Shown here in pieces: positions 29,576 through 49,811 of a stretch of DNA of 64,000 nucleotides; position 1 is the stretch's first letter; each line of letters starts with the position of its first letter. This DNA comes from Chlorobiota bacterium (lineage in GTDB: Bacteria > Bacteroidota > Ignavibacteria > Kapaibacteriales > UBA2268). Below the pieces are notes generated by a model. That model was given only the letters and a program-made list of their open reading frames with translations. It did no database searches and was not told where the DNA came from. Position numbers and translations under genes: made by a program. The stretch is from positions 229,889 through 293,888 of the forward strand of contig JAXMOE010000001.1 in assembly GCA_034670025.1 (NCBI GenBank), read 5' to 3'.

Positions 29576-29584
29576 AGGAATTAA

Positions 29585-30928: not shown

Positions 30929-30952
30929 AAACAAAGAAATAGGAAATAGAAA

Positions 30953-31414: not shown

Positions 31415-31420
31415 AATTTT

Positions 31421-31493: not shown

Positions 31494-31737
31494 GATAAAA
31501 GAATTCAACTTTTCGTTATAATATAGAGCCTACAGTATCTGACATTTAAACCTCTAAACATCCAAAAAAACAAAAGCTTTAAGTGTTGCTCTAAAAGTTC
31601 AACGAGCCAATTAAATAAAGCAAATCTTGTAAATAGTTTTATTTTTACATAATTTAATCTGTTAAACGTAAACTAACAGTTTACAACCGTATAAAATTAT
31701 TGTTTAATTTGACTAATAATCATTACGTGGAGTTTAG

Positions 31738-32520
31738 ATGAGTTTAAAAAAGTTCATTAATTATGAATATACTTTAAGACCCAAAAATCTTGCAAATGTT
31801 ATTGATTCGCATATGGATCATATTTATGAAGGCTTTCTACAAAGATCTATATTGTCTTTAAATGGAATGGGAACCGATAAATTTAAGATTACTGTCAAGA
31901 TAATGGATGATAATATTTACGCAATTAGAATAAGACGTAAATATCAAAAAGGAAGCATAGAAAGTTCTATAATTATATTCAATTTAAACCCTGGCTCAAA
32001 CACTATTTCTATTAGTAAGAGCGAAGATTTTTTAACTAATGGTATCTTATTAAGAGTAGTCATAGTCTTGTTGAGTAAAAAACTAAATAAGAATGGATTA
32101 AAAATAGAGACAAGAGAAATAAAAATTACTAAAGACTTTTGGGAAATAGTAAAAGGCAAAGAGGACAGGATAAAAGAATTAAAGTTTGAATATAAAAGTG
32201 CAAATCTAAAAGGATCCTCAAAAGCAATTCCAACAAAATTAAGAATGTTATTCGAAATGCTTGGAGATAATTCAAATAGCATATCAATGAACGCTCCAAG
32301 GGGCTTCACTTTAAAAAGTGTTAATAAATTCAATAAAATATTAAATCCACTTGTTACTTTTTCTAAAACTTCAAACTCAAATATTCTTATTAAATTTATT
32401 GATGAAAAAAAGTTCTATAACACTTCAAAGAATTATTCAGTTACTATTTATGATAATTTCAATTTTGATAAAATTGGTGATGATACAGAATCAAATTTTA
32501 ATTTAGAAATTCTATCTTAA
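31738..32520 (+). CDS. hypothetical protein, AT-rich orphan (260 aa)
   Basis: N/K/I-rich composition unlike the flanking phage genes. Isolated between a 320-bp AT-rich leader and a terminator. Confidence 0.5.
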   Translation: MSLKKFINYEYTLRPKNLANVIDSHMDHIYEGFLQRSILSLNGMGTDKFKITVKIMDDNIYAIRIRRKYQKGSIESSIIIFNLNPGSNTISISKSEDFLTNGILLRVVIVLLSKKLNKNGLKIETREIKITKDFWEIVKGKEDRIKELKFEYKSANLKGSSKAIPTKLRMLFEMLGDNSNSISMNAPRGFTLKSVNKFNKILNPLVTFSKTSNSNILIKFIDEKKFYNTSKNYSVTIYDNFNFDKIGDDTESNFNLEILS

Positions 32521-32596
32521 AATTCTATTTAGATAAATATTATTTTTAATTTTGTATTCGAATCTGGCTCAACAGGCAGATTTAGAATGTAGTAAT

Positions 32597-32628
32597 TAGG
32601 AACACATGTAAATGTGTTCCTAATTTTT
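32597..32628. terminator. bidirectional intrinsic terminator
   Basis: AGGAACACAT-gtaa-ATGTGTTCCT perfect 10-bp stem with a T-run after. Confidence 0.7.
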
Positions 32629-32644
32629 CAACTACAATACTACA

Positions 32645-33391
32645 CTAGTCACAACATGATTCAATAGAATATAACTCGAGAACTTCATCTTGAGAAAGAA
32701 CTTTGTTAAAAAATGCAATGTCATCAATAGATCCATTAAAATACTTTCCAATTATTATATCACCACCATTAACTGGATTAATAACTTCTTGAGTTATACT
32801 AGTCTGTGTATCCATTAGTTTACCATTTTGATAGAGTGACATTGTTTTAATATCGAAGTCACATGTTGCAACTACGTGATACCATTGATTTAGCGAATTT
32901 TGATCAGAGTTGTCCCAAACAGAATGCATGTTATTAAAAAAGGTTACTTTATTTATATCATATACACCTAATGACATTACTCTATTTGTAGCAGGAGTTT
33001 TATTGTCTTTGTCACCTCTAGCAACTAGGACTTCATATTGTCCTTGATTATTGATAGTATGTTTATACCAAAGAGAAATAGAGTACTTTCTCAACCCATT
33101 TAAAAAATTAGGAGACGTCATGTACAGATAGTTTGGAGAAGTATCGCTAAATTTATAAGCACAATTTTCTCCACCCTCTCTACCTTCAGTTGGTTCCGCA
33201 TTGTTCTCATTAGTTAAATCATTACTAGACTTAAAATCCTCTATACTGGAATTACTAAAAGGGTAGTAGGCAATCAAATTATCTTCTAAAGAAGCTGGAA
33301 TACAAACTTTATTAGTTGGGTCAGTTCCATTATCTTCTTTCTTGCATGAGAAAGCTAGAAGTAGTATTATAGTTAGAAAAAAATATTTCAT
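32645..33391 (-). CDS. lipoprotein with LamG-like (concanavalin A-like lectin) domain
   Basis: Lipobox LLAFSC after the signal peptide. LWYKH...WYHVVATCD...LYQNGKL...FNGSIDDIAFFNKVLSQDEV is a LamG jelly-roll signature. Confidence 0.65.
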   Translation of the reverse strand: MKYFFLTIILLLAFSCKKEDNGTDPTNKVCIPASLEDNLIAYYPFSNSSIEDFKSSNDLTNENNAEPTEGREGGENCAYKFSDTSPNYLYMTSPNFLNGLRKYSISLWYKHTINNQGQYEVLVARGDKDNKTPATNRVMSLGVYDINKVTFFNNMHSVWDNSDQNSLNQWYHVVATCDFDIKTMSLYQNGKLMDTQTSITQEVINPVNGGDIIIGKYFNGSIDDIAFFNKVLSQDEVLELYSIESCCD

Positions 33392-33590
33392 TTGAATCCT
33401 TCATGTATGTTAAAAAATGTATTAGAATAAACACAAAACTAGTAGTTTAGTTACATTTTATATCGAGTTTATAAATCTGATAACTTCTCTTTATGTTTAC
33501 TAAATACGTCCGACTGCATCGCTCCCTTATTAAAAGCTCATAAATTCTTAAAATATTGATATACTTTACTTTAAAATCTGATAGAAGTTA

Positions 33591-35579
33591 TTAAGACTTT
33601 ACTACTTCTTTCAGCACTTCACTTAAGTCCATTAAAGTAAAAGGTTTGGGGATAAAGTGTGTTAGTCCAATCTTATTCAAATCTGATATGTCTTTACTCT
33701 CGGTAAAACCAGAAGTAACAATTATATTTATTTCACTATTTAGCTCTTTCAGCTTTTTATAGCATTCTTTACCGTTCATTTGTGGCATAATCATATCTAG
33801 AATAACTAGGTCAATTTCATCAGATTTACTTTTAAATAACTCAATTCCTTTTATCCCATCTTCAGCAAGTAATACTTTAAACCCTAGCTTTTCTAAAAGT
33901 ATTTTTGTCGTTACTCTGATTATTTCTTCATCATCTATTACTAGAATGGTTTGATTTCCAGCTATTAATTCATTATTGTTATTTACTTCACTATCTAATT
34001 TAGCATTCTCAGATAAAGGTAATAGTACATTGAATGTAGTACCTATGTTTAATTCACTATATACAACTATCTCACCACAATGCTCCTTAACAGCCCCTTG
34101 CACTGATGACAACCCTAAACCTGTACCTTTACCTCTTTGCTTAGTTGTAAAAAAGGGATCGAATACTTTTTTAGCTACTTCTTTTGTCATGCCGTGGCCT
34201 GTGTCATTGATAGAGATAAGAACATAATGACCTGGCTCAACGTTTAAATATGAATGTTCTAAATCTTGCTTAGAATAAAATTTAGACTTTGTTGCAATGC
34301 TCAATGTGCCTCCATTTGGCATCGCGTCAAAAGCATTAATAAAAAGGTTAATAAAAATGTTCTGTATTTGAGATTTATCCCCTTTTATAATGAAATCATT
34401 ATCTGAAACTTTAAAATCAAAAATTATATTTTTATTAATTCGACTAGAAACTAATTCAAGAGAAACGTTGATTTCATCAATCAAATTTAATTCTATAGAT
34501 TGGAACTTACCTTTTCTTGAGTAATCAAGTAATTTTTTAATTAATTCTGCGGCTCTATTACTCGCATTTTCTATGATACCTAAAGCTTTCAATGAATGTT
34601 TATTAAGACCTTCATCGTACTTCATTAATTCAACAGAATTAAGAATACCAGTTAGAACATTATTAAAATCGTGAGCAACTCCTCCTGCTAACAATCCAAC
34701 CGCTTCCATTTTCACTTTTTGAGCTAACTGTGCCTCAATTTCTTTCCTCTTTGTTATATTGTTTATCTTAATAATAACATCATGTTTAACATCCGCCTCC
34801 ATTGGAAAAACTTTTACTTCATAAAAATTTAGTTTATTATTCTTTGTAGCCTGTTCTTCGAATGAAAAAGTAGTATTGTTTTTTATACATTCTTGGATTC
34901 TAATTTTATGATCTTTTAATAAATCAAAATAATTGAATAAATATTTTCCTAAAACTTCTTTATCGTCATTTTTTGTTAATAATCTTCTACCAAACTTGTT
35001 TATTAATGTAATTTCAAATTGGTCATTAATCCCAATTAATGTCGATGGCATTGAATTAATTACACCTTCTAAATACATAGTTAATCTTTCCACTTCGTTT
35101 TGATTCTTAAGTTCTTCTGTTACATCTCTTAAAACTGCAAAGCTCATTCTTTCATTTAACAGTATTGCGGATAGTTTCATATTTAATATTTTACCAGATT
35201 TATGAATAAATTCATAGTCAACTTCATCTAGGTACTTTTGTTCATAAAAAAGTGGTAATATTTCACTAATAGCTTTTTCTTTACTTTTTGTTGTTAAAAA
35301 ATCAGTAGATTTCTTACCAATAACCTCATGTTGTTCGTATCCTAGACCCTTTAACCAATAGTCACTAACATCAATTATATGACCCGACTCATTTATTGAA
35401 TGAAAAATTGCAGGGATTTTCTTCAACACATCAAATTGTTTAGAATTTTCTACACTAGAACATTCATCAAGCTCATTTGATAAAATTTCAAAAACAGTTT
35501 TTGAAATAGCTTCGTCGTCAAAAAGAATTTTAATCTTTTCCTTAAAAGTATTTATTGTTCCGTTGTCCATAATTCTCAA
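33591..35579 (-). CDS. hybrid sensor histidine kinase/response regulator with PAS domains
   Basis: H-box AHDFNNVL, ATPase N/G boxes (DTGHGM, GTGLGL), C-terminal receiver (LVIDDEEIIR...DLVILDMIMP). Confidence 0.85.
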   Translation of the reverse strand: MRIMDNGTINTFKEKIKILFDDEAISKTVFEILSNELDECSSVENSKQFDVLKKIPAIFHSINESGHIIDVSDYWLKGLGYEQHEVIGKKSTDFLTTKSKEKAISEILPLFYEQKYLDEVDYEFIHKSGKILNMKLSAILLNERMSFAVLRDVTEELKNQNEVERLTMYLEGVINSMPSTLIGINDQFEITLINKFGRRLLTKNDDKEVLGKYLFNYFDLLKDHKIRIQECIKNNTTFSFEEQATKNNKLNFYEVKVFPMEADVKHDVIIKINNITKRKEIEAQLAQKVKMEAVGLLAGGVAHDFNNVLTGILNSVELMKYDEGLNKHSLKALGIIENASNRAAELIKKLLDYSRKGKFQSIELNLIDEINVSLELVSSRINKNIIFDFKVSDNDFIIKGDKSQIQNIFINLFINAFDAMPNGGTLSIATKSKFYSKQDLEHSYLNVEPGHYVLISINDTGHGMTKEVAKKVFDPFFTTKQRGKGTGLGLSSVQGAVKEHCGEIVVYSELNIGTTFNVLLPLSENAKLDSEVNNNNELIAGNQTILVIDDEEIIRVTTKILLEKLGFKVLLAEDGIKGIELFKSKSDEIDLVILDMIMPQMNGKECYKKLKELNSEINIIVTSGFTESKDISDLNKIGLTHFIPKPFTLMDLSEVLKEVVKS

Positions 35580-35681
35580 TTTGTTTTAATAATACTCATT
35601 ATCCATAAAAAAATAATTATTCTGTTTCATTACTGCTGGTTTGTAATAGATACTTGTGAAAAGAGCTCTCTACCACTTACC

Positions 35682-35906
35682 CTATCTCTCATAGTCGTGA
35701 CAAACTTTTCCAGAGCAAAGCCAATCTGTCGAGAATCCTTGTTTAAATAGTCTTAAACTAATTTTTTGTAGATCATTGTCGTTGTTTAGATATTTATTTA
35801 GTGACTGATGCGAAATACCAATCTTCATAGCAAATTCAGATTTAGTTAGCCTTGTAATACTAAATAATTTAGTAAATCTAGAAAGTATATCTCTGTCGTT
35901 CTTCAA
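35682..35906 (-). CDS. XRE-family HTH DNA-binding protein
   Basis: LTKSEFAMKIGISHQSLNKYL is a helix-turn-helix. Confidence 0.5.
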   Translation of the reverse strand: MKNDRDILSRFTKLFSITRLTKSEFAMKIGISHQSLNKYLNNDNDLQKISLRLFKQGFSTDWLCSGKVCHDYER

Positions 35907-36106
35907 AATTTAAATAAAAATAATTAACGTAAAAGTTCAGTGAGCTAAGATAATGATATTTTTTGGATATATTTATTGGCGTAAAAGTTCAATGAGGATA
36001 CTTTTTTTTATTTCTATTTTTAAACCATTAAAAATTCTATAAAATTTGGTAACAAAATGACAATTATCTAAAATTATTTTAAAAATGTGCTTATTTAGAG
36101 GTTTAG

Positions 36107-36304
36107 ATGAAAAGAGAAGAAATTTGCAAAATATTAAATAGAATTGATGAAACTAGTAGTATTGACTTAAATGATGATCTTGAATATAAATTTTACAAAG
36201 TCTATAACGGTTTGCTTTTTATAGAAACATTTCCATTAACAAAAAACCATAGTAGTATATTAAGACTCACTAACAGAGGTAAAGAATTAATTAGGCATAA
36301 CTAA
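36107..36304 (+). CDS. hypothetical small protein
   Basis: 65-aa ORF in an AT-rich region. Confidence 0.25.
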   Translation: MKREEICKILNRIDETSSIDLNDDLEYKFYKVYNGLLFIETFPLTKNHSSILRLTNRGKELIRHN

Positions 36305-36510
36305 GCATATTGAACAGGAGTAGTTATGTCAACAATAAGCATTACTAATTATATTTTTGATTTTTTTAAAGCCCAACGATATTATGTGATAATAAATAGG
36401 CTGTTCTTTAAAATAGAAATTTAACTCTGTTCCGATAAGTATATCAGATATAGGAGTTATAATTGATATATATTCAAATAACACGAGCAAGCCTACTAAT
36501 ATGCATCATA

Positions 36511-36556
36511 GCAGTGCCCATCTCTCTCATTTATCAGGATTACACCGCTAACATAC
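36511..36556. repeat. direct repeat copy 2 (partner of 26011-26056)
   Basis: See copy 1. Confidence 0.55.
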
Positions 36557-36661
36557 TTTCAACTTGCTCTGTTCTAAAACAACTCTTGTAGCACAGCAAA
36601 GTTAAATAAAACGAGATTATAATTCAAGATATTTGTCAATATCTATTCAGTTAGCTATATT

Positions 36662-37198
36662 GTGTTTCTACTTAACTACTATGGGAAATCAAACTTGAAA
36701 ACTTTACTATTAATTTTATCTACTGTAATACTTCTTTCATGCTCCAATGATGACAAATCGACTACTGAACCTACTGTCCAAGGTAATCTTTACTGTTCAG
36801 ATGTTGACATTATGCCTGACGGCTTAGAAGACACTTACGTAAGAATAGTTGGTGTGCTGCCGAACCCAGATGGTGATGATGACTATAATGAACAGTTTAG
36901 AGTGAAGTCATTCTTACTAGATAGTAATGTTGATATTGGGAGTTACTATATTCTTGATGATGAGGATGTAAGATGGGATCTCGATGAGTTGGAGTCCTCT
37001 ATTGATTACATTGAGACTGATAATTGTAGAACGATAACTTACACCTCTGACAAAGTAGCTCAACTACTTAATTCTGGTGATGTGATTTATCTTTATAATA
37101 AGGATGAAGTTCTCATTCAGACTGTTTCTTTTGGGGCTGTTGGGTCTGGGGAGTGGGTGGATTTCTTTTATAATTATTCAGTGATTCCGGGTGCATAA
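36662..37198 (+). CDS. lipoprotein, possibly lamin-tail-domain (LTD)-like
   Basis: Lipobox ILLSCSNDD. YVRIVGVLPNP...GSYYILDDED pattern resembles LTD (EFVEL-N-P...DLSGW-L). Confidence 0.4.
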   Translation: MFLLNYYGKSNLKTLLLILSTVILLSCSNDDKSTTEPTVQGNLYCSDVDIMPDGLEDTYVRIVGVLPNPDGDDDYNEQFRVKSFLLDSNVDIGSYYILDDEDVRWDLDELESSIDYIETDNCRTITYTSDKVAQLLNSGDVIYLYNKDEVLIQTVSFGAVGSGEWVDFFYNYSVIPGA

Positions 37199-37213
37199 AT
37201 TAAGAGGTTTAAA

Positions 37214-37438
37214 ATGAGAAATATAAGTAAAGAAAATCTAGTTAAATATTTGAAAGAGATTGACGAGAAAGGTCAATTTGCAGCTGACACTATAGAGAAA
37301 AGAGTGTTTTTAAATACAGGGTTCAAGTATTTTAACAGTAAAGACTTTGAAAAATCAACAGCTTTTCATGGTGCTGAATACCAAGGGGGATTGTCTTTAA
37401 CGGAATATGGTAAAAGTATATTAGAAGAAAGTGATTAA
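37214..37438 (+). CDS. hypothetical protein (first gene of a three-gene AT-rich operon)
   Basis: 74-aa ORF, 15 bp after the lipoprotein gene. Confidence 0.4.
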   Translation: MRNISKENLVKYLKEIDEKGQFAADTIEKRVFLNTGFKYFNSKDFEKSTAFHGAEYQGGLSLTEYGKSILEESD

Positions 37439-37453
37439 ACCTAGTTAGATTTT

Positions 37454-37936
37454 ATGATGTTAACTGATAAAAATGTTGAAACCCTATTAAATTCTCCTAA
37501 AAAATTAAACTTATTTTTTGAGGATTTATTTCAAAAACCCAAGCAAAAATTCGGTCACACTGAATTTGAATTTGATTTTTTTGATGAAAGTGATATTAAG
37601 TTTGGTTTAAAGCTAAGAATTAATAATTCAAATAAATCAAATTTTTCAGCTATTTTAGGCTTTTATTCAGATGGTAATAATTATAATATTCTTACTAGAT
37701 ATAATGGTAATTCTCATTGGCATAAAAACTTACTACACAATTCACCTGATTTCAAAGATTTTCACATTCATATCGTCAAAGAAGAATATGTACAAAGCCC
37801 CAAAATACGTAGAAATGAAAGTTATGCAGAACCTACCGATAGATATGACAATTTTAGATCTGCTACTATTTGTTTAATTAAGGATTGTAATATAACTTTG
37901 AAAGGTGAAATCGAACCAGAACTATTTAATGAGTAA
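37454..37936 (+). CDS. hypothetical protein (160 aa), His-rich motifs HWHKN / HIHIV
   Basis: ORF overlapped at its 3' end by the next gene. Confidence 0.45.
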   Translation: MMLTDKNVETLLNSPKKLNLFFEDLFQKPKQKFGHTEFEFDFFDESDIKFGLKLRINNSNKSNFSAILGFYSDGNNYNILTRYNGNSHWHKNLLHNSPDFKDFHIHIVKEEYVQSPKIRRNESYAEPTDRYDNFRSATICLIKDCNITLKGEIEPELFNE

Positions 37937-38729
37937 AAGTCTTAACATATTAAAATCTATAAGAGAAAATATTTCATCTGAAATTGAGATTATAAGTGAT
38001 GGCGTAGATAGCTATGAAGTCATTACTCCGTTCTATTTTGATGATGGGGATATGTATACTATTAGACTTGAAAAGTCAACCTTTAATAACTGGTATTTCA
38101 CTGACGAAGGAAATACATTTATGCGATTAAGCTACGAAATGGATGTAAATAATCTGACTAAAGAAGGTAGAAGATTTGAAATTGTTAATTCAGTTGTTAA
38201 TTCACTAGATATTCAAAACTCTGATGGAGAATTAATATCAAATGTACAAAATGAGGAATATGGTAAATCATTATATAATTTGATTCAATGTATAACTAGA
38301 ATTAATGACATATCTTTTTTAAGTAGAGAGAATGTTAAATCTACTTTTATTGAAGATTTTAAATCTTTTATTAATAGTGAACTTAAGGATAAACACTTTG
38401 AATTTGATCATCATATACCTAAATATGATATTGGAAAGAAGTACCCTGTTGACTGCATGATAAACAGTGTCCCCAATAAGAAACCTCTTTTTCTTTTTGC
38501 AATAAATAGTGATAGTAAATGTAAAGATGTTACTATAAATATTCTTCAATATCAAAAGTGGGACATTGCTTTTAAACCAATTGCAATATTCGAAGACCAA
38601 ACTAATATCAGTAGAAACGTGCTTGCTAGATTCTCTGATGTTGGCGAAAAACAATATTCGAGCCTGTATTCAAACAAGGAAGGTTTAGCGAAACAATTTA
38701 AAGAATTTTATAACATTCAAAATTTTTAA
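37905..38729 (+). CDS. hypothetical protein (274 aa)
   Basis: ORF with a 32-nt overlap onto the preceding gene, consistent with an operon. Confidence 0.45.
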   Translation: MKSNQNYLMSKSLNILKSIRENISSEIEIISDGVDSYEVITPFYFDDGDMYTIRLEKSTFNNWYFTDEGNTFMRLSYEMDVNNLTKEGRRFEIVNSVVNSLDIQNSDGELISNVQNEEYGKSLYNLIQCITRINDISFLSRENVKSTFIEDFKSFINSELKDKHFEFDHHIPKYDIGKKYPVDCMINSVPNKKPLFLFAINSDSKCKDVTINILQYQKWDIAFKPIAIFEDQTNISRNVLARFSDVGEKQYSSLYSNKEGLAKQFKEFYNIQNF

Positions 38730-38920
38730 TTTTATGGTTCTTTAAACCATATAAAACCATCACATTAATTGCCATCTTTTTTGAACGATTATTACATTTT
38801 AAATCTCACAATAATTTGTAAATAATTTTCCAAGAACCACTCCATTTATTGCAACCCTTACCTACTAACCTCCAAAATCGGTAAATCTTACAAACTTATT
38901 CTCATTCTTTAATTTTACCC

Positions 38921-38962
38921 TATAAAAAAAAAGCCCAACTATAAAAGTCAGGCTTTAGAATT
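38921..38962 (-). terminator. probable intrinsic terminator for the minus-strand repeat-protein gene
   Basis: AAAGCC...GGCTTT stem followed (on the minus strand) by a T9 run. Confidence 0.4.
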
Positions 38963-38978
38963 AAAATCTAATTAAAAT

Positions 38979-40874
38979 TTACATTACAACTAAAGTTACC
39001 AATCCTGTTCCATCTAAAGTATTAGTCCCTGTACTTGTTGGATTATTTTGTATCTGTATTTTAAGTGTACCAGCAGTATTTGTAACAATAGTACCTATAA
39101 ATCTATAAGGCGTAGATAAAACAGAAGAATTTAAATCTTCAAAATTAGTTGCATCATAGCCAAAATCTCCATCAAAAAAACCAGAAGTAAAAGTACCAGT
39201 GTAGTTAATCCTAGTGTCAATTTTCCCAGATCCAGTTTCATTAACTTGGAAATAGCCAAAAAGTTGATATACGGTATTTGCAGCTAAAGTGAATTCAATT
39301 CCTGTATCTTGATATGTACTACTTAACGTTAAACTGTTAGGTGTATCAGTAGATGCTGTAGCTCCACCACCACCACCTGCAACTGTAGCCCAGCTTAAAT
39401 TAGTTCCATCAGTTGTTAAATATCTACCAGAATTACCTGATTGTGACGGTAAATTACCTTGCTTTCCATCTAACTGAGTTTGTACATTTGAAGTTACAGA
39501 ATTAATAAATTGAAGCTCAGTGCTTGTTACCGAACCGTCTGCTAATTTTGTTGCATCTATTGCAGCACCTGCTTTTATGTCTGAATTTTCAATATTTGTG
39601 ATAGTGTTATTATCTGCATCTATTGATTTATTTGTTAAAGTCTGTGTATCTGTACTACCAACTACGTCTCCCGTTGGTACTGCTTTAACTGCAGTTACTG
39701 CACTAGTTCCATTTCCCTGTAGAAAATTACCAGTTGCTAAAGTTGTTGCTCCTGTACCACCATTTGTAACTGACAAAGTTCCACTTACTGAGTTAGCATC
39801 TCCTAATGGCAATGAACCATAAACAGCAGCTGTTCCTGCTGTGCCACTTGAAAGTAATACTTGATTAGCAGTTGCTGAAGAGTTTACTTCTAAGTTAGTA
39901 GCATTTGATAAGATAGTGCTAGACCCACCTGCGTTTAATGTATTTGTAGCAAAAGATAAACCATTACCAGCTGTTATAGTTGCTTGTTTGCCGTCTAGTT
40001 GTGTTTGTACGTTTGAGGTTGTTGAATTAATATACTGAAGTTCAGTACTTGTTACAGATCCATCAGCTAACTTAGTCGCATCAATTCCAGCATTGGATTT
40101 AATATCTGCATTCTCAATATTAGTTATTGAGTTATTATCTGCATCTATTGATTTATTTGTTAAAGTCTGTGTTGCTGTTGTACCCACTAAATCCCCTGTA
40201 GGTAAACCAGTTGTGGCAGATAATAGACCTGAAGAATTTGCAGATACAATTCTATTGCCTGTGCCTGTTAGAGAACTTACAGTAACATTTGTGGGTGTCA
40301 ACGATAATGCATCTGTACTATTTACACTAATTACACCTGTATTTGCACTATAACTTAGCTCCATTTCTGTATTATTCAATTCTCCATTGTCTGGACCTAT
40401 GTGTAGGGTGCTACCGCCTACATAAACATCATCCCATCTGTTATCATCTGCTCCAATAGTACCGTTAAGTGTTTGTGGGTTAAAATTACCACTATTGTCT
40501 AACACCGTCGCTTCAGCCTGTATTAATATTAACTGGTCATATCTTTTTTGAGAAAATAATGTACCATTTACATAAATATCTAATAATGTAAATGTATTGA
40601 TTACAGAAGCATTAATTCCTGACCAGTCGCCTGTAGACCCACCCGCTGGGTAATCGTTTACGTTAACTATTACTATTCCATTATCGTTTGGTGCTAGACT
40701 GAAAGTCTCCCCTCTAAATAACAATGTATTACTGGTATAGTCTTTTAGTTCAATATAAACGTTCTGTGCAGCTGTGTTATTAGTGTAATAAGCTACTTTA
40801 GATGGCTCTAATCCATAAGATGTCAAAGAGCAAATAAGTAAGATTAGAACAGTTATAAGTTTGAATTGATTCAT
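38979..40874 (-). CDS. secreted tail-fibre-like repeat protein with signal peptide and two tandem ~140-aa repeats
   Basis: Signal peptide MNQFKLITVLILLICSLTSYG. Repeated block ...TQTLTNKSIDADNN(S/T)ITNIEN(A/S)DIK...IDATKLADGSVTSTELQ(Y/F)IN...NVQTQLDGKQ. G/T/S/N-rich. Confidence 0.6.
   Translation of the reverse strand: MNQFKLITVLILLICSLTSYGLEPSKVAYYTNNTAAQNVYIELKDYTSNTLLFRGETFSLAPNDNGIVIVNVNDYPAGGSTGDWSGINASVINTFTLLDIYVNGTLFSQKRYDQLILIQAEATVLDNSGNFNPQTLNGTIGADDNRWDDVYVGGSTLHIGPDNGELNNTEMELSYSANTGVISVNSTDALSLTPTNVTVSSLTGTGNRIVSANSSGLLSATTGLPTGDLVGTTATQTLTNKSIDADNNSITNIENADIKSNAGIDATKLADGSVTSTELQYINSTTSNVQTQLDGKQATITAGNGLSFATNTLNAGGSSTILSNATNLEVNSSATANQVLLSSGTAGTAAVYGSLPLGDANSVSGTLSVTNGGTGATTLATGNFLQGNGTSAVTAVKAVPTGDVVGSTDTQTLTNKSIDADNNTITNIENSDIKAGAAIDATKLADGSVTSTELQFINSVTSNVQTQLDGKQGNLPSQSGNSGRYLTTDGTNLSWATVAGGGGGATASTDTPNSLTLSSTYQDTGIEFTLAANTVYQLFGYFQVNETGSGKIDTRINYTGTFTSGFFDGDFGYDATNFEDLNSSVLSTPYRFIGTIVTNTAGTLKIQIQNNPTSTGTNTLDGTGLVTLVVM
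39470..40250. repeat. intragenic tandem DNA repeat (two ~260-bp copies about 520 bp apart)
   Basis: 40-bp identical core TATTATCTGCATCTATTGATTTATTTGTTAAAGTCTGTGT at 39613-39652 and 40131-40170, with about 75% identity in the flanks. Confidence 0.7.
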
Positions 40875-41040
40875 TCAATTTACCTCTATTAATTAAATTA
40901 TGATTTGTTTATTGATGCAATTTATAATTATTATTTTAAGCAAACAATAATAATGAAGTCCTGTTAATAATACCTATTACTGGCTATATTAAAATCAACT
41001 ATTATTTTTTCATTGTCATTTCTGGTCTGTTTTTATGATT

Positions 41041-41051
41041 CCCCCCCCCCC
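41041..41051. repeat. C11 homopolymeric tract (G11 on the minus strand)
   Basis: Eleven consecutive C in an otherwise AT-rich genome, about 170 bp upstream of the minus-strand repeat-protein gene start (40874). Confidence 0.9.
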
Positions 41052-41067
41052 GTGCAAAATTATTACA

Positions 41068-41847
41068 TTAGTTTCCTAATACATTCTTTGCTTTTATCGA
41101 TTCAATTTTATTCATAATTAAGTCAAAATCAGCTTCATTCTTAATCTGACTCCATTCAGAGATAAGTAAATCATATTCATTTGAAGTAGTATAGGGTTTA
41201 ATATAAGCCATATTCTTATTGAACTCCCTAATGTCAAATGAAATCGCAGCGTCTATATAAAAATTGACTAACATAAATAATATTAACACTAAGCTTGGTA
41301 AAGAGAATTTAATGATTGATCTTGCTGATTGAATTTTAAAATTAGTTAACAGATTTTCTATAACTTTTTTATCAGACTCAATTTCATTTTGAATCTTTTC
41401 TATTTCTTTGCTAATATTTTCAGGGTCTACTTTAGAGGGTTTTTCCTTGCTGGAATCGTCTATGCTTGCCAATAGCACTTCTGTTCTCGATTCTAGTTTT
41501 ATATTTTCATGCAACAAATTTTTGATAAGCTCAACTTTTCTATCTTTAGTGTTTTCTAAGTTATCTATGAAGAGTGCTAAAATCATAGATAGTGCAACTA
41601 TCATTAGTATACTAGTGGTTCGACTGAACATATAAAGATCTTGACTAGAGACTCGTTTATAGTAATGTTGAATAAAACTATCACTAATATCCATTAATAT
41701 ATTAACGACGTAAGGACCAATAATTGATAGTACCCACAATATTCCTGCTGTAAGTAAGGTAATAAACAAGCTGTATGCTATTTTTTTCATAGTAAATAAT
41801 TCTTTCCAAGATGTGTCCTTGTTTGTCATCCTATATCTCCTTGTCAT
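41068..41847 (-). CDS. hypothetical integral membrane protein with central coiled-coil
   Basis: Hydrophobic segments at both ends and a charged coiled-coil middle. Confidence 0.5.
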   Translation of the reverse strand: MTRRYRMTNKDTSWKELFTMKKIAYSLFITLLTAGILWVLSIIGPYVVNILMDISDSFIQHYYKRVSSQDLYMFSRTTSILMIVALSMILALFIDNLENTKDRKVELIKNLLHENIKLESRTEVLLASIDDSSKEKPSKVDPENISKEIEKIQNEIESDKKVIENLLTNFKIQSARSIIKFSLPSLVLILFMLVNFYIDAAISFDIREFNKNMAYIKPYTTSNEYDLLISEWSQIKNEADFDLIMNKIESIKAKNVLGN

Positions 41848-41933
41848 GTTTAATTAATGATATCCAATTTATAAATTATATTTATAAACATAGAATATTC
41901 CAATGTCAAAATAAACTATTTTTTAACAAGTTT

Positions 41934-42482
41934 TCAAAACAACTGACTCTCAATTTCCTCAATTATCTCTATTATATCGTCATCAGTTAGAGTAAGAAAC
42001 GGTGAAGCAGGCACGTCCATTTCACGTGTGTGTGCCTTAACTTCATATTCTTTCCCTGCTTTTGTTTTCCTCAAGTGCTGAACTACACTAACCTTACCTT
42101 GAAACCCAAAGTTGTGAGCAGCCCCATAAGGAGAAGTCATTTTGATAGATATTTGGTCTTTCCCATAAGGAGTAACATTTACAGAATCACGCATATTTGC
42201 AGATCGATCCAAAGTCCTTTTTAGCGGATTTATCCCTCTACGTTTATAGTCTTTTATAGTACTCTTTGCTAGTGGTTTCCATCTACTATTACCACCTGAG
42301 AACAAATCTACAGAGCTTGAACTGCCATCCCATCTTCCATAGCTAGAAAAGTTCTTGTCTATTGCTGACTCTATTATTTCAGCAATAGTTCCAAGCAAGG
42401 GAGTGATGTTTGAATACTTCTTTTGCACTTCGGCATAAACAGCATTCATTTTGTCAATTAATTCTTTCCTTTCTAAGTCCAT
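41934..42482 (-). CDS. phage virion morphogenesis protein (Mu G-like position/size)
   Basis: 182 aa, immediately downstream of the F-like gene as in the Mu head module. Confidence 0.45.
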   Translation of the reverse strand: MDLERKELIDKMNAVYAEVQKKYSNITPLLGTIAEIIESAIDKNFSSYGRWDGSSSSVDLFSGGNSRWKPLAKSTIKDYKRRGINPLKRTLDRSANMRDSVNVTPYGKDQISIKMTSPYGAAHNFGFQGKVSVVQHLRKTKAGKEYEVKAHTREMDVPASPFLTLTDDDIIEIIEEIESQLF

Positions 42483-43837
42483 TACAAAATCTCATTTAGT
42501 GTTATAATTAATTGTTCAATCTCGTCTTCTACCTTTACAACCTTGAATAATTTATTCCTTCCAATTATTCTATTACTATCATTCTCTGACAGATCACTAA
42601 TATCTACAGCGTTTTTACTATTATATTTCAGTACTAAGTTACCAGATCCTTGACTATCTGAACCAATAATATAATTTCGCTCTTCAATAACTTCATCAAC
42701 AGAATACTTCTTTTTCAACTTACTAAATTCAGAAGGTGCTACGGACTTAGTTTGATATATGTAACCATTTCTGCCAGTAGGAGATTTAACAGCTTTATCA
42801 ATAGCAGTATCAAGAACCTTTTTATATCCAGTTAATATTTTCCCAGAGCTACCACCTGCAGACTTTAACATCTCTTGCATCTTTTCTGTTGTAATTGCAT
42901 TCAGAGAAGACTTTTCTTCTTTAGATAGGTTCTTGTGTGCATTCCGCTTTGTCTTATCTCCTGCTGTCTTCTCCATTGACGATTTGAGTATTGTAGAACG
43001 TTTGGCATTGCTCAAATCCTTTTTTGTGTATTTTGTCTTTGATTTTAATAGCTCTCTTGCCTGTTCCCTCAATTCTCTGGAATACTTCTTCATGTCTTTT
43101 TCAAAGTCCGTGCCTCTAGGGTCAAACTTATCCATTGCATCCAAATCTATCTGAGGAACATTCTTGTCTAGCTTCAAGTCTTTCAATGCTTGACCTACAG
43201 ATTCTACTTTACCACCCATGTTCTTTAATTGCCTTTCTGATAATGACCTCATACGGCAATGACAACCAAATCCATTAGGTGGATATATCCGATGAATCTC
43301 AGGGTCATCAGCTCTAAATATCTTACCTTCTAACTTTTCATGAGTCTTCCTCTTCGTATCCCTTTCTTTTTGCATATAAAGCAAATAAGGTCTGGACTTA
43401 CTCGCTTTCATTTGTTGCTTAAACCTTGCCTGCTGTTGTGCTACCCTGATATTGGTTCGGAGAATTAAGTTTAATCTACTTTCAGAACCTAACTGAATTG
43501 TTTTCATTTCTCCAGTCTTTGGGTCTTTGATTGTCTGCTTCCCCCACCAACCTTTTTTTTGAAGTATCGGTATTAATCCCTCTTTGAACTCCTTAACGGA
43601 TTTCCCAGAGGATTTGAAGTCTTCTATTGCCTTGAAAATATCATCAAGCAAATCTAATTGAGAAACCTTTGCAACTGTGAACGCTTTGGCGTGAGCTTCA
43701 CCGCTAATAGAATCATATCTATCAGTGATGAGCTTACTCTCGCCTTTCTTCCTCAGTGCATCAAGTCCTTTGTCAGCACCTTTGTCTCCGACTTTCTTTA
43801 GTGCATCTGCTAATGTATTTGATAATAGCTTAGGCAT
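42482..43837 (-). CDS. phage head morphogenesis protein (Mu F / SPP1 gp7 family)
   Basis: Conserved ...RADDPEIHRIYPPNGFGCHCRMRS (NCRC motif) and a basic C-terminal half. Confidence 0.7.
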   Translation of the reverse strand: MPKLLSNTLADALKKVGDKGADKGLDALRKKGESKLITDRYDSISGEAHAKAFTVAKVSQLDLLDDIFKAIEDFKSSGKSVKEFKEGLIPILQKKGWWGKQTIKDPKTGEMKTIQLGSESRLNLILRTNIRVAQQQARFKQQMKASKSRPYLLYMQKERDTKRKTHEKLEGKIFRADDPEIHRIYPPNGFGCHCRMRSLSERQLKNMGGKVESVGQALKDLKLDKNVPQIDLDAMDKFDPRGTDFEKDMKKYSRELREQARELLKSKTKYTKKDLSNAKRSTILKSSMEKTAGDKTKRNAHKNLSKEEKSSLNAITTEKMQEMLKSAGGSSGKILTGYKKVLDTAIDKAVKSPTGRNGYIYQTKSVAPSEFSKLKKKYSVDEVIEERNYIIGSDSQGSGNLVLKYNSKNAVDISDLSENDSNRIIGRNKLFKVVKVEDEIEQLIITLNEIL

Positions 43838-45276
43838 TATATTTCCTCTGACACCTGTGTAACAGCAATCATATCAGATATTAATTCCTCTAATTCAGTT
43901 GTGTCAAGGTTTGCATTTACTTCTAAAATACTCTCTTTAATCTCTTCAAATGATTTACCTTTGTTAATCATATTAATGATTGGCTCTACAGTTTTCTGGA
44001 ATTTATCAGCTATTGTGTCTTCTATTTCACTCTGTGCTGAGAAGTTGTTCATAGGTCCAGTTGGTGGAGCGGTCTCCACATTTGATATTTCAAATTCTGA
44101 ATCTTGAAGAGAGTAAGTCTTCTTGATATACTCTTTAGTAAATTCAACCCCTAACCCTTTCAATATTGTATCAGTTTCAGCCTGTGCTTTTATTTCGGAA
44201 GTCTGACCTTTAGCAATTAATTTATAAACAGGGATTTCAGCTTCTTCAACCTTCCCAAAATTTATATGTACCATTTTAGTAATAATATCATTCATATTCC
44301 CAACTACAAGTTTTGCATCTGAGTCTCGAATGATATTTATAGATTGAGTAATCTGTTCTCTGTTTCCCAAAGCTCCTGCAACACTATCTACAGCCGATGA
44401 ATGTGATAAAATAGCTTTAGCAATCTGTTTATCACATACCTCTATGAATCCTTTATATATCTCACTCGAAGATGAGTCATTTCCTTTTATTACAAGAACA
44501 TCATCAGTACCAGGTATTGCACCTGTTCCATCTTGGAATAGTCCATCTAATGCAGAAGTCATTTCGTTAACTTCTTCCTTAGAAGCACTGTAGCTTTCAT
44601 CTTTAGCATTTTTACCAACTAACCCTAACAAGTGTATCATACCATATTTCTCAACAAACTTTGCAAAGAATTTAAGACCTGCCTTTTTAAACATAACGGG
44701 CCAATAACATTTTTTGAAAACAGCATTTCCATAAGGGTTTAAATATGTTGGATAGTTCTGAACTACGGTAAACTTCTGTTTGGAAAGTATTTTACCTTCT
44801 GCTCCGTGCCCTTTCCCTAAAAATCTTAGTCTGTTATTTGTGTCGAATGTAAACCAATGAGGAGGCTTCCCAACAGCACTCGAAATGTATTTATATCCAT
44901 TAGCATCTTCGAGCCAAATTAATTCCATTACAGAGTAACCATAGGCAATAGCATCAAGCATCTCACCAATGGTTTTTTCCATATCCCATTTCTTGATTAC
45001 ATTATTGACAAATTGGAATATATCATCTCTGGTCTTACTTGGATCAAGTTCCCAATCCATTGATTTTACATTATCCTTCCTTAACTGCAAAGCTGCGGAA
45101 ACTTGGTCGTCAATATCCAAGTCATAATATGCAGATAAATTTCTGTTTAAATTCTTTAATACTATATCTGGATTTGGCAACGAACCAAAAATAGAGCTGT
45201 ACGCATTCATATCTTTTGCCTCAGCATCAACTCCAAATATCTCTTTTGCTAATAATTCTTTATTTATATCACCCAT
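43837..45276 (-). CDS. phage portal protein (Mu gp29/DUF935-like)
   Basis: 479 aa, between the large terminase and the F-like gene. Acidic C-terminus. Confidence 0.6.
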   Translation of the reverse strand: MGDINKELLAKEIFGVDAEAKDMNAYSSIFGSLPNPDIVLKNLNRNLSAYYDLDIDDQVSAALQLRKDNVKSMDWELDPSKTRDDIFQFVNNVIKKWDMEKTIGEMLDAIAYGYSVMELIWLEDANGYKYISSAVGKPPHWFTFDTNNRLRFLGKGHGAEGKILSKQKFTVVQNYPTYLNPYGNAVFKKCYWPVMFKKAGLKFFAKFVEKYGMIHLLGLVGKNAKDESYSASKEEVNEMTSALDGLFQDGTGAIPGTDDVLVIKGNDSSSSEIYKGFIEVCDKQIAKAILSHSSAVDSVAGALGNREQITQSINIIRDSDAKLVVGNMNDIITKMVHINFGKVEEAEIPVYKLIAKGQTSEIKAQAETDTILKGLGVEFTKEYIKKTYSLQDSEFEISNVETAPPTGPMNNFSAQSEIEDTIADKFQKTVEPIINMINKGKSFEEIKESILEVNANLDTTELEELISDMIAVTQVSEEI

Positions 45277-46712
45277 TACATGAACCCTTCAGTTATTGAT
45301 TTTTTATTTGTCTTTTTAGGAGAACTGTAGCGTTTAGCCCCTTTGTTCATAGTCTTAATTATCTTCATTAATATTTGTATTGCAATTGAGTATACATCTA
45401 CTTGGTCGTCGTGCTTACCACTTGGAAACCTTGCCAACTCATTAATAAAATCAGTATTCCAACTCATACCTTTAGGCAGATAAACAATTTTATTTTCTAG
45501 TGGGCTTGATACCATATTAGCTCTAACTACCTTGTTCATTGTTTTAACAGACTTTATAGGTATACGGTACTGGTATGGTAAAACTTGTAGTAAAGACTGA
45601 CCACTCCCTGCATCCTCTACATACAATTTATCTGGTTCCCAATAATTGTATAACCTGACAGCATTTTTCTCCAAATTATTAAAGTCAATTTTCTTTCTAA
45701 ATACATCTAATAAATAATAGTGATGCTCATCAATACCAATTGTTAAGCACACAGAAAAATCGTTCGTCTCACTTTCTTTAAAAGCTGTATCCCATACCTG
45801 AATGACGAAGTCTAAGCCCTTTCTCTTTACAACTGGCTTTTCATTATAGTATTGCCAATTGCTTGGGTCAAAGATAATTGAGTTTGTAAGAACTGGCTTT
45901 TGTTGGTATAGTGAAGTGAAGAAACTACCTTGAACTTCTTTCTGCTCTTCTATATACTCTTCATCAAATCTTTGTGGCCACAAAACATCACCTTTCTTTC
46001 TCCCTAAAACATCATCCTCTTCTGCAATAGCAGGAAAGTTTACTACCTCCCAACTATCAGGGTATGTTTCTTGCAAATAGCCTGCAATGTCATCATAATG
46101 CCATCTGGTCATTACAACTATCACAATCCCATTCGGAGATAATCTGGAAAAAGCTGTCGATGCAAACCAATTCTTCATTGACTCCCTGTAAGTAGGGGAA
46201 AAAGCTTCTTCGTGATTCTTAATCAAGTCATCAATTATAAGTAAATCAGCTCCCTTACCAGTAATAGACCCTTTCCAACCGTGAGCTTCCACACCGCCAC
46301 TATGTCTTGATATTTCCCAACTTGATTTTGACTTAGTGCTTTTACTTACATCTAAACCAAATAGATTTTTACCGTGTTCTAAGAACAAATCTCTAGTCCA
46401 ACCGCCATACTTATTAGCAAGGTCAGATGAGTGCATAGTAATAAATACCTTTTTATTCGGATTATTACCCAAATACCAAACAGGAAAATACCTACAAATC
46501 AATTCTGATTTTCCGTGTCTCGGGGGCATATTTATAATTATACGTCTCTTTTTTTTTGCGACTGCATCCAATAGTATATTATTCACATAAAGCAAATGTT
46601 TTGCTAAATGGTACTTCCCACCTGACATATAATAAGCCATAGAGATAGGAGTACCAGTAGCAAATTCAACACTATTAGTCACGGATTTCGTCAAGATTCT
46701 GTTTGCCCTCAA
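45276..46712 (-). CDS. phage terminase large subunit
   Basis: N-terminal ATPase (PRHGKSE Walker A-like). C-terminal RNaseH-like nuclease region (VEDAGSGQSL). Confidence 0.65.
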   Translation of the reverse strand: MRANRILTKSVTNSVEFATGTPISMAYYMSGGKYHLAKHLLYVNNILLDAVAKKKRRIIINMPPRHGKSELICRYFPVWYLGNNPNKKVFITMHSSDLANKYGGWTRDLFLEHGKNLFGLDVSKSTKSKSSWEISRHSGGVEAHGWKGSITGKGADLLIIDDLIKNHEEAFSPTYRESMKNWFASTAFSRLSPNGIVIVVMTRWHYDDIAGYLQETYPDSWEVVNFPAIAEEDDVLGRKKGDVLWPQRFDEEYIEEQKEVQGSFFTSLYQQKPVLTNSIIFDPSNWQYYNEKPVVKRKGLDFVIQVWDTAFKESETNDFSVCLTIGIDEHHYYLLDVFRKKIDFNNLEKNAVRLYNYWEPDKLYVEDAGSGQSLLQVLPYQYRIPIKSVKTMNKVVRANMVSSPLENKIVYLPKGMSWNTDFINELARFPSGKHDDQVDVYSIAIQILMKIIKTMNKGAKRYSSPKKTNKKSITEGFM

Positions 46713-47376
46713 CTTCTTTTAAAATCTTATTGAAGTGTTCTCTCATCTTATCACTTTCTGCTATCACATTCCCTATTCGTTTCTTAGCTTCTTCGTCTTC
46801 ACCAAATCTATTTTCAATAATCTCACCTGCTAAACCGAGAATATTTCTCTCTGTATTAATTAGGTTAATCATGTGTTTCGATGAATCTTTTGTCATCTCA
46901 AATAACTCAGCAACTGTAAGGTCTTCTAGTTCTTTTAAATTATACTTCATATTACCAGCTTCATCAGTAGTGTACAGCTTCTTGTGCAAAGCCAATTTCG
47001 CTAATGAAATTAACTTCTGATATGATTGCAACTCTAATAAATGAGATTTTTCCCTAGACTCCAATGCTTTTTTCTTGGCTTCCATTGTTGCTTCAAGTTC
47101 AATTTTTTGAAGCTCAACAACCCGTTCTTTCCATTGATATTTATCCCTCCAAACATATAAGTGCTGTTTGGATTTAAGGCCCAGTTTATCCTTAACCATG
47201 TCCATATTCCGCTTAGGTCCTAAATCTCTAAATATTTCCCAAGCTTGATATGCCTTATCAGATTCATCTTCCAATCTAAGCAATACGCTATTATCTTTTA
47301 TCATCGGGTCCCCATGCTTTACTGAAACTATGGTCTTTGATAATCTTTTCTTTTGGAATACCTTCCGAAATTCCAA
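46675..47376 (-). CDS. putative terminase small subunit / DNA-binding packaging protein (start uncertain)
   Basis: Directly upstream of and overlapping the terminase large subunit gene. Listed start overlaps the upstream gene by 86 nt; an internal Met is the likely start. Confidence 0.35.
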   Translation of the reverse strand: MEFRKVFQKKRLSKTIVSVKHGDPMIKDNSVLLRLEDESDKAYQAWEIFRDLGPKRNMDMVKDKLGLKSKQHLYVWRDKYQWKERVVELQKIELEATMEAKKKALESREKSHLLELQSYQKLISLAKLALHKKLYTTDEAGNMKYNLKELEDLTVAELFEMTKDSSKHMINLINTERNILGLAGEIIENRFGEDEEAKKRIGNVIAESDKMREHFNKILKEVEGKQNLDEIRD

Positions 47377-47806
47377 GCTTTACAACTTCCTCTTCTTCCA
47401 TTTGAAGTCTTCTCATTATTTCTTGTACCGGAACACCGCCTTTTATCATATCCCCAACAATCTTTGACATCTTAAAAACACCGTGAGTTCCTTTGGCTCT
47501 GTTGTGCCTAATGGTACTCATCTGCTGTGAAGTTAAATCTGTAGGGTTCGTAGTTGTAACAGGAATCTTACCACCATCCCTTTCTTTTATTCTCTTATCG
47601 TCCGATGCAAGCCAACGGTGATAACCATCAACAATCGTATTATCATTATTTTTTACTATTGGTTGAGTCCATCCGTCTTCCAGAATTGAAATTACTAATA
47701 GTTCAAAATCATATTTGGTCATAGAGTTTGGGTTGTAATTGTTTGGGTTTAATGTGTCTCGATCTACCCATTCAATATTATCTATTGGTTGTTTGAAATT
47801 ACTCAT
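47291..47806 (-). CDS. ParB-like nuclease domain protein (IbrB-like)
   Basis: DGYHRW motif of the ParB/Srx fold. 4-nt ATGA overlap with the upstream PAPS-reductase-like gene. Confidence 0.65.
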   Translation of the reverse strand: MSNFKQPIDNIEWVDRDTLNPNNYNPNSMTKYDFELLVISILEDGWTQPIVKNNDNTIVDGYHRWLASDDKRIKERDGGKIPVTTTNPTDLTSQQMSTIRHNRAKGTHGVFKMSKIVGDMIKGGVPVQEIMRRLQMEEEEVVKLGISEGIPKEKIIKDHSFSKAWGPDDKR

Positions 47807-48939
47807 TCTGTTACCTCAGGTTTCTTACCTTTCTTAAATTTCATTGTAGCTGACTTACGTTTTTTAAAGTCCCCTCTAATAGCACAGTCACATAAGAACT
47901 TCCAACTACAACCAGTCTCGTGATGCGGTTTGCTATCTGGGATTTTGTCATTAGTGTCCTTGTAGTGTAGTCTGATAGAGTCATTTATACCTTTCTGAAC
48001 TATTGACTTGTAAGGCTCTTCATATCCAGTCATTATTACCTCATAGTAATCTTCCCATTTGTCGTAAGCAGGAGGTAATACTTTTCCTGTATATAATCCA
48101 ACATTCGAGTACCTAAGGGCAGTTCTCGCTCCTCTTACTCTATCTTGCATCTTCCCCCAAAGTGCGTGGTCTATTAATTGGTATTCTCCAATCCCCCGAA
48201 GTGGCTCTTCACCAAAAGCATTACTTACTCTTTGTTTCAAGAACCTATTATGATAACCTGGTATCTTATCCAAAGCATCGTAATATCTATTATAATCCCA
48301 ATTGAATTTTTGAATCCCAGACCAAACATCTTCACTAGTCCAATCATAGACAGGGTGAGCTATATGAATATTCCCATATCGATGTGCAATGTAATTATCT
48401 GACTTCTTTCTAAGGACAGCCATTCTTCTTCTTAAACTTTCCTGAGCTCTAATTCCAGTTAGAAAGCAAACATTACCATTGAAGTCCTGATACATCTCAT
48501 CACAGAATTGTGGCATTGTTAGACCAGGTTTAAATCTTCTATGAGTTGTGATTGCATTTTCTGGCATATCTCTACACCATAACGGTTTCTTAGATGGTTC
48601 CCAAGGATACCACCACGGCTCATTATTACTACAAGCGTTTCTATGCTTAACAGGAATGCAATACCATTTGAAATCAATATCAGGATTGTTGGATATTCTT
48701 TCTACATACTCAATAGTCTGACTTGTAATTGCTTCTTCATCAATATATACAACCTCTAAGGGCAACTGCTTAAGCTCTTTTGCAACGACAAGAGCAAGGT
48801 TTAACACAACCGTAGAATCTTTTCCACCAGAAAAAGATACTACTACCTTGTCAAATCTATTGAAGCAATCTCTTATTCTTAGCCTTGATTCATCTAATAC
48901 ATTGGTTGTATAGACGATTTGCTTATGTGATAAACCCAT
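47803..48939 (-). CDS. PAPS reductase-like PP-loop ATPase (IbrA/DUF3440-like)
   Basis: PP-loop VVSFSGGKDSTV. C-terminal Cys cluster (CSWKFLCDC). Confidence 0.65.
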   Translation of the reverse strand: MGLSHKQIVYTTNVLDESRLRIRDCFNRFDKVVVSFSGGKDSTVVLNLALVVAKELKQLPLEVVYIDEEAITSQTIEYVERISNNPDIDFKWYCIPVKHRNACSNNEPWWYPWEPSKKPLWCRDMPENAITTHRRFKPGLTMPQFCDEMYQDFNGNVCFLTGIRAQESLRRRMAVLRKKSDNYIAHRYGNIHIAHPVYDWTSEDVWSGIQKFNWDYNRYYDALDKIPGYHNRFLKQRVSNAFGEEPLRGIGEYQLIDHALWGKMQDRVRGARTALRYSNVGLYTGKVLPPAYDKWEDYYEVIMTGYEEPYKSIVQKGINDSIRLHYKDTNDKIPDSKPHHETGCSWKFLCDCAIRGDFKKRKSATMKFKKGKKPEVTE

Positions 48940-49811
48940 TATCCTACCTCATCTAAAAATTGTTTAGCAGTTGTTATAAGTGTAGATGCAAATTCAACAG
49001 TCTTTGGCTCAAATTCATATATCTCAGCCCAAGTATGTTTAAATGTGTTGTCTTTAATATCTTGCGAATGTCTTTTACGTCTAGCCCAAGGGTGAGTGCC
49101 TAAATAGAATGGTCTTTTCAAGTTATAAAAAGGGGGCAACTCCAAATTGTAATAATGTATCAAAGCCAAAACTTCTTCATGCGACCAATCAGAAATAGGA
49201 GAGTATCTTGTTATTCCTTTAGCGTTAGTGTAAATATTACTACCACCTGTACCAACATAATTATTGTCCGCCGTCCTTCTTCCCAAAAGGATAATATCTA
49301 ATTCATATTCTTTAAAGTAAATATCCTGTGCTCTTTGTTGCACTTGTCTATACCATATAGAACCGTACTTAGAGTTATCAGGGAAAAGCATTTCAGGATG
49401 ATTAGATAACCATTCTAAGTCTTGTCCAGTGTTGATTATCGAAATATCCATTGGGGAATTAGAATTCAGCCAATCCAAAAAGAATGAATACTCAAGATTA
49501 GTCAAGCCAATCATAGATTTTTTAATACCAACAATATCAGTTATGTACTTCAATGTAATTGAGTCTTTCCCACCGCTCCAAGCAATGGCTACGTTCTTAT
49601 CATGAACAATTCTTATCATTTCATTTGCAGTTTCTTCAATTCTCCTATCAATATGGTCTTTGCTAACAAACTCTTGAGGGTTGTTGAACACCGCTAAGAA
49701 TTTATCTCTTTCGTCTTGTGACTTCAATTGGGCTTTCCTTGGTAATACTTTTCTATTCATATCACACCGTCCTAATGTCTTTAAGGTTCTTAGCAGATAC
49801 ACCATTGACAA
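48939..49811 (-). CDS. PAPS reductase-like PP-loop ATPase (second copy)
   Basis: PP-loop IAWSGGKDSIT. Confidence 0.6.
   Translation of the reverse strand: MSMVYLLRTLKTLGRCDMNRKVLPRKAQLKSQDERDKFLAVFNNPQEFVSKDHIDRRIEETANEMIRIVHDKNVAIAWSGGKDSITLKYITDIVGIKKSMIGLTNLEYSFFLDWLNSNSPMDISIINTGQDLEWLSNHPEMLFPDNSKYGSIWYRQVQQRAQDIYFKEYELDIILLGRRTADNNYVGTGGSNIYTNAKGITRYSPISDWSHEEVLALIHYYNLELPPFYNLKRPFYLGTHPWARRKRHSQDIKDNTFKHTWAEIYEFEPKTVEFASTLITTAKQFLDEVG

Follow-up and report, generated by a model that had tools for sequence, protein, structure and literature searches.

What does a run of eleven identical G/C bases do between two genes of an AT-rich genome, and does it switch the gene that follows it? 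A first-pass annotation of this DNA had noted the run upstream of a gene for a secreted fibre-like protein, and had proposed it as a candidate phase-variation switch. We analysed the tract in its window, by which we mean the whole 64-kb stretch of DNA (34.1% GC), and compared it with related loci from other genomes and contigs. Our analysis tentatively favours a modified form of the proposal, in which the slippage-prone tract tunes transcription of the fibre gene from a distance; we assign this reading a probability of roughly 0.38.

A single long G/C homopolymer in the window

The tract reads t-CCCCCCCCCCC-g on the plus strand (C11). Both neighbouring genes have the minus strand as their coding strand, so that for them the tract is a G11 homopolymer (Table 1). 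No other C run in the window reaches 6 nt, and among the G runs the longest measure 7 and 6 nt. Under an independent-base model 4e-4 G/C runs of at least 11 nt are expected in 64 kb, and under a first-order Markov model 6e-4. The first-pass annotation was therefore right that eleven consecutive C residues in such DNA are improbable by chance. It was also right to place them in an intergenic region, between the end of the gene at 41068-41847 and the minus-strand start at 40874, with gaps of 16 nt and 166 nt, respectively, and with the last G at 167 nt from the ATG. We conclude that the G11:C11 homopolymer is real and lineage-specific.

Reading all three minus-strand frames, we found no open frame across the tract: each stops within 13 codons past it, and the stop codon of the upstream gene precedes it. 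Being in no reading frame, the tract cannot act as a frame switch, and this candidate was rejected. On the plus strand, the C run is read as a stretch of prolines in a tiny open reading frame at 41036-41080 (MIPPPPCKIITLVS), which lacks a ribosome-binding site and probably arose by chance.

G/C runs of about 8-9 or more slip readily in replication, and frequent slippage is one of the properties required of a simple-sequence-repeat contingency locus. At eleven units, the tract should be hypermutable, gaining and losing units by slipped-strand mispairing at a high rate. We found no other simple repeats in the window that would point to an organism using such switches.

Table 1. Features of the window that bear on the G11 tract (window coordinates).
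Feature	Position	Strand	Remarks
Integrated prophage	17576..64000	.	Integrase, S24 repressor, early genes, cargo island, Mu-type packaging, capsid and tail genes; continues beyond window end
Low-GC cargo island	32645..41920	.	Inside prophage; LamG-like protein, hybrid histidine kinase, PDC-M24-like pair, fibre gene, membrane-protein gene
Intrinsic terminator past fibre gene	38930..38956	-	First on minus strand downstream of phage packaging operon
Fibre gene, 631-aa secreted fibre-like protein	38979..40874	-	Signal peptide, conserved N-terminal domain, two repeats, TNF/C1q-like beta-sandwich tip
Intergenic spacer, membrane-protein gene to fibre gene	40875..41067	-	193 nt; tract in non-conserved distal part
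Shine-Dalgarno-like AGAGG	40883..40887	-	Last base 8 nt before ATG; kept in L001
Putative core promoter of fibre gene	40919..40947	-	TTGTTT (40947-40942), 17-nt spacer, TAAATT (40924-40919); inside sole upstream block conserved with L001
G11 homopolymer (C11 on plus strand)	41041..41051	-	Sole G/C run of at least 8 in 64-kb window
Orphan gene, 259-aa membrane protein	41068..41847	-	Two hydrophobic segments and charged middle; stop codon 16 nt before tract
Mu-type packaging block	41934-51169	-	G-like, F-like, portal, large and small terminase, ParB, PAPS-reductase-like genes

The tract lies in the cargo island of a prophage

The first 17.5 kb of the window are host chromosome, with genes for NusA, IF2, PNPase, penicillin amidase and an epimerase. 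Uncultured Chlorobiota/Ignavibacteria genomes encode proteins with 96-99% identity to this PNPase. At the left prophage junction (17575/17576) the homology to one close relative, L028, ends at window position 17575, and in all three close relatives compared (L027-L029) the site is empty, the epimerase gene being directly followed by the genes for PTS-EIIA and 2-oxoglutarate dehydrogenase. No tRNA gene was found at the junction. The integrase, the S24 repressor and the early genes extend from 17576 to about 32.5 kb, and the capsid, lysis and tail genes occupy the plus strand from the packaging block to the window end. The tract is located about 23 kb inside this integrated prophage.

A related viral contig, L018, encodes a G protein that is 84% identical to that of the prophage. 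It is syntenic with the window only over 41921-48483, the synteny stopping at about 41921, just past the Mu-G-like gene, and it is wholly different beyond the G gene. This difference, together with the low GC content at about 32.6-41.9 kb, identifies the stretch that carries the tract as a cargo island. The membrane-protein gene at its edge is an orphan: among 5.8 billion proteins the sole match of its product was itself, no Pfam, PHROG or PADLOC match was found, and the only NCBIfam profile, PmtD, scored 17 bits, far below its cutoff of 220.

Several other genes of the prophage deserve mention. An overlapping DUF6978/DUF1828 pair in the island (37454-37936 and 37905-38729, both on the plus strand) matches a candidate defence pair of PADLOC, PDC-M24A (weakly, E 8e-3) and PDC-M24B (E 7e-21), as well as PHROGs without assigned function, and may be an anti-phage system carried as prophage cargo. 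The 248-aa LamG-like protein (32645-33391, minus strand) is 87.5% identical to one encoded at 6899-7645 of the locus L016, and at both places a fibre-family gene and a histidine kinase gene are found nearby, which hints at a set of linked genes taken by the phage from a host chromosome. Upstream of the terminase genes, two PAPS-reductase-like genes (47803-49811, minus strand) stand between ParB-like nuclease genes (47291-47806 and 50480-51169, minus strand), an arrangement that resembles phage DNA-modification modules.

The fibre gene appears to be of host type

The fibre protein starts with a signal peptide and a well conserved 200-aa N-terminal domain. It contains two copies of a TQTLTNK...NVQTQLDGKQ unit and coiled-coil helices, the second half of the unit being modelled as a long helix. 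The C-terminal beta-sandwich is the only confidently modelled part (pLDDT 80-94), the remainder of the model being poor. In its predicted structure this domain is akin to TNF-like lectins, to Chlamydia Pgp3 and to phage fibre or spike tips, and the protein is probably trimeric with a lectin-like tip.

The best match of the fibre protein was either 78% identical over 30% of the query or 74% identical over 79%. Its relatives are encoded by chromosomal genes of Ignavibacteria-like bacteria, some of them with YadA-head repeats or named as beta-strand repeat proteins. We found no relatives in viral contigs and no paralogue among the tail genes of the phage, and for these reasons rejected the idea that the fibre gene encodes the phage's own tail fibre. 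The earlier label, a secreted tail-fibre-like protein, therefore stands in that the protein appears secreted and fibre-like, and fails where it implies a tail fibre of the phage. The description that fits best is a secreted fibre or adhesin of host type that the phage carries as cargo. The signal peptide, the fibre repeats, the relatives with YadA heads and the TNF-like lectin fold all mark it as a surface or host-interaction product.

The tract is far from the likely promoter

Aligned with its counterpart at the nearest orthologous locus, L001, the spacer is conserved over the 93 nt closest to the start codon (alignment score 91.5, as against 41.9 +/- 4.8 for shuffled sequences, none of 300 reaching it). 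The distal 100 nt, which bear the tract, show no conservation (40.5 as against 36.8 +/- 5.1, with 67 of 300 shuffles reaching the score). The conserved block contains the pair TTGTTT-17-TAAATT, which judging by conservation and motif is likely the core promoter of the fibre gene; a TATAA(A/C)TT(G/A) box akin to its TAAATT lies 40-43 nt before the ATG in both L001 and L016. The tract is upstream of this pair, with 93 nt between its end and the -35-like hexamer TTGTTT, which would put it at roughly -129 to -139 relative to the transcription start. No regulator site was identified near it. MAFFT aligned the tract with GATAAGTGTAG of L001, and we rejected positional homology between the two since the distal alignment is no better than that of shuffled sequence.

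No intrinsic terminator was called in 40875-41067, which leaves the tract in a region that can be transcribed or regulatory. Moreover, the first minus-strand terminator after the packaging operon lies past the fibre gene, so that read-through transcripts carrying G11 are possible. The predicted fold of the spacer is about as stable as that of shuffled sequence (z = -0.02), and Rfam gave no match; a terminator, an RNA structure and a known RNA family were accordingly rejected as explanations. Neither a C/U-rich partner segment nor a palindrome was found for G11.

Two kinds of DNA rearrangement were also considered. An invertible-promoter element was rejected, as the only inverted repeats flanking the tract are weak, AT-rich and at chance level, and no recombinase is encoded in the cargo island, the only integrase being that at 17647-18777. 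A mobile-element end or recombination site was rejected as well: the flanks of the tract are repeated nowhere else in the window, and the break in L018 synteny is 870 nt away.

A 22-nt direct repeat (82% identical) occurs at 40915-40936 and 41862-41883, upstream of the fibre and the membrane-protein genes, and TATAAATTG forms part of it. The repeat might represent a promoter duplication or a footprint left when the membrane-protein gene was inserted, but in AT-rich DNA chance may also account for it. With 3 occurrences against 2.5 expected, TATAAATTG was rejected as a general promoter motif.

A second poly-G tract upstream of a fibre paralogue

We compared the upstream regions of ten other loci of the fibre family (L001, L002, L014, L016/17, L019, L020, L021, L022/23, L024 and L025). 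At nine of them no G/C run of 7 or more was found upstream of the family gene, and at one of these, L014, the whole upstream spacer measures 55 nt. The first-pass annotation had placed the tract in a promoter region. This placement is not supported, in view of the 93 nt that separate the tract from the -35-like hexamer, the lack of conservation around it, the shortness of the L014 spacer and the nine tract-free loci.

The exception is L002, a paralogue in a genome of the same genus (Ske_MAG9), which has a G9 run whose last G lies 167 nt from the ATG, the same distance as in the window. In 291 kb of DNA (the window and the fetched loci, some of them overlapping) G11 and this G9 are the only two G/C runs of at least 8, and both are on the coding strand upstream of members of one fibre gene family. 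The sequences between tract and ATG are unrelated in the two loci, and measured against a conserved LEPSK motif the two start codons differ in position by two codons. In L022, the orthologue of L002, the position of the G9 is taken by GGTCTCGC. The absence of each tract from its respective orthologue, L001 for the window and L022 for L002, suggests independent recent gains. The equal distance is an unexplained coincidence, and speaks to a small degree for poly-G tracts being functionally linked to this fibre family.

The G9 may be a structural element of another kind, as it can pair with a C6 five bases away, within a GC-rich cluster of short hairpins. This cluster (L002 5650-5860; L022 about 2750-2880) comprises G9-TAAAT-C6, C5-TTTAACAA-G5 and CCTCCC-TGTTAA-GGGAGG. 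On one side it is bordered by the terminator of a 1451-aa gene and on the other by the fibre paralogue; it is partly kept in a second genome and has no Rfam match.

We were not able to find a second copy of the G11 locus in the protein, viral-contig and Logan collections searched. Exact-protein look-ups for both flanking genes gave no match, and the DNA flanking the tract is absent from viral contigs. An independent Logan contig of 982 bp (L026, from SRR21822735) is 100% identical to window 41790-42771 and ends 739 nt short of the tract.

Possible roles of the tract

Because the tract would lie some 129-139 nt upstream of the transcription start, a switch acting through the -10/-35 spacer is not supported. 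What survives of the proposed surface-protein switch is a tract of slippage-prone length, in an intergenic position upstream of a secreted fibre gene; its promoter placement does not. We propose instead that G11 acts as a distal modulator. Its length would change by slipped-strand mispairing in replication, and this change would shift the core promoter, in distance or in helical phase, relative to an upstream site. Alternatively, the change might act between read-through transcription from the membrane-protein gene and the core promoter. In either case the outcome would be graded rather than on/off expression of the fibre. Several observations favour such a modulator, namely the uniqueness of the tract in a window where about 6e-4 such runs are expected, and the location of both G/C runs of at least 8 in 291 kb upstream of fibre-family genes, at 167 nt from the ATG. 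Secreted fibres with lectin-like domains are a typical class of contingency genes. Against it stand the distance to the -35-like hexamer, the unconserved surroundings, the tract-free state of nine of ten family loci including one with a 55-nt spacer, and the hairpin cluster that contains the L002 G9.

A neutral by-product we consider nearly as likely as the distal modulator. Here the tract would have arisen by recent slippage or illegitimate recombination in the dispensable spacer of a recently acquired, fast-changing prophage cargo, and its length may vary to no effect. Its place in the non-conserved distal spacer, away from the promoter, fits this account, as do its absence from orthologues, the adjoining orphan gene found nowhere else, a region wholly unlike that of the related phage L018, and a window devoid of other repeats of a switch-using organism. 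However, long G/C runs are prone to mutation and, unless selected for, should soon be lost. Moreover, such a run is scarcely expected by chance in a window of this size, and the one other long run in related DNA likewise precedes a gene of the fibre family, again at 167 nt from its ATG. It is improbable that the tract is instead a fixed cis-element whose length does not matter. As such it might bind a protein or help to structure the nucleoid, act as a pause or roadblock for transcription between the two genes, provide a read-through mRNA with a G-rich segment, or form part of a plus-strand promoter. Read-through RNA would indeed carry G11, there being no terminator between the genes, and a plus-strand TTGTCA-15-TATGAT pair at 41013-41039 would start its transcript inside the C run. 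But a 15-nt spacer is unfavourable and AT-rich DNA abounds in such matches, while the ordinary folding of the spacer, the missing Rfam match, the lack of a C/U-rich partner or palindrome and the unrepeated flanks all argue against a fixed element.

Still less probable is an artefact of sequencing or assembly, such as a homopolymer miscall, a chimeric join or a poly-G read tail of two-colour chemistry. Long-read assemblies are liable to errors in homopolymer length, and the count of eleven may be off by one or two. Eleven bases, however, are too short to bridge contigs in k-mer assembly, and the tract is internal to a long contig. Both of its flanks have the same composition, with relatives of both sides in the same lineage and the same metagenome study, and the Logan contig matches the assembly perfectly though it stops before the tract.

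The most far-reaching version of the distal-modulator reading joins all of its parts: a temperate phage of an uncultured Ignavibacteria-like bacterium would carry a host-type adhesive fibre gene whose expression is randomly varied by slippage in a distal poly-G tract. Paralogues in different genomes would have acquired such upstream tracts in separate events (a G11 in the window, a G9 in Ske_MAG9, each at 167 nt from the ATG). This full version we hold to be unlikely.

Comparison with known systems

Should the tract indeed switch or tune the fibre gene, the range of repeat-based contingency would come to include an uncultured lineage from the environment, and the prophage would deliver a stochastically expressed surface structure to its host. 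It would be the first repeat-based contingency locus in the Ignavibacteria-like lineage, as far as the searched literature shows, one belonging to a prophage cargo gene and placed unusually far upstream; we found no paper in that literature linking Ignavibacteria with phase variation. If the tract is inert, it only adds to the number of unstable homopolymers in dispensable spacers.

In Neisseria opc and porA and in the poly-C tract of Bordetella fim genes, a homopolymer is located between the -10 and -35 elements or directly beside them or an activator site. Like these, the window tract is a run of about 10-15 G/C bases that precedes a surface-protein gene; unlike them, it stops well short of the -35-like hexamer.

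Repeat-based contingency loci as such are well known (PMC5084427), and two of them act from outside the promoter core. In N. meningitidis nadA, mapped sites for NadR and IHF flank a TAAA tract at -55 to -85 (PMC2791445), and in H. pylori sabA a T-tract serves as a rheostat, the repeat being upstream of the core promoter (PMC4081817). As in these cases, the window has a simple repeat outside the -10/-35 spacer, upstream of an adhesin gene, where length would alter upstream spacing and give graded expression. Unlike the TAAA and T tracts, however, the window repeat is a G/C homopolymer, and it is a putative modulator at a greater distance than the nadA tract.

Poly-G contingency loci are known from Campylobacter, and contingency loci have also been reported in phage genomes (PMC12633550), with receptor-binding genes of Campylobacter phages as a further case (PMC10877375). 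The window tract shares with them a presumably hypermutable poly-G in low-GC, phage-borne DNA, linked to a protein of fibre or receptor type. Those loci are mostly intragenic and act by frameshift, whereas the window tract is intergenic and its fibre gene is host-type cargo with a signal peptide. At best, the G11 tract is a candidate member of a familiar class, set apart by its unusual host and by how far it lies from the promoter.
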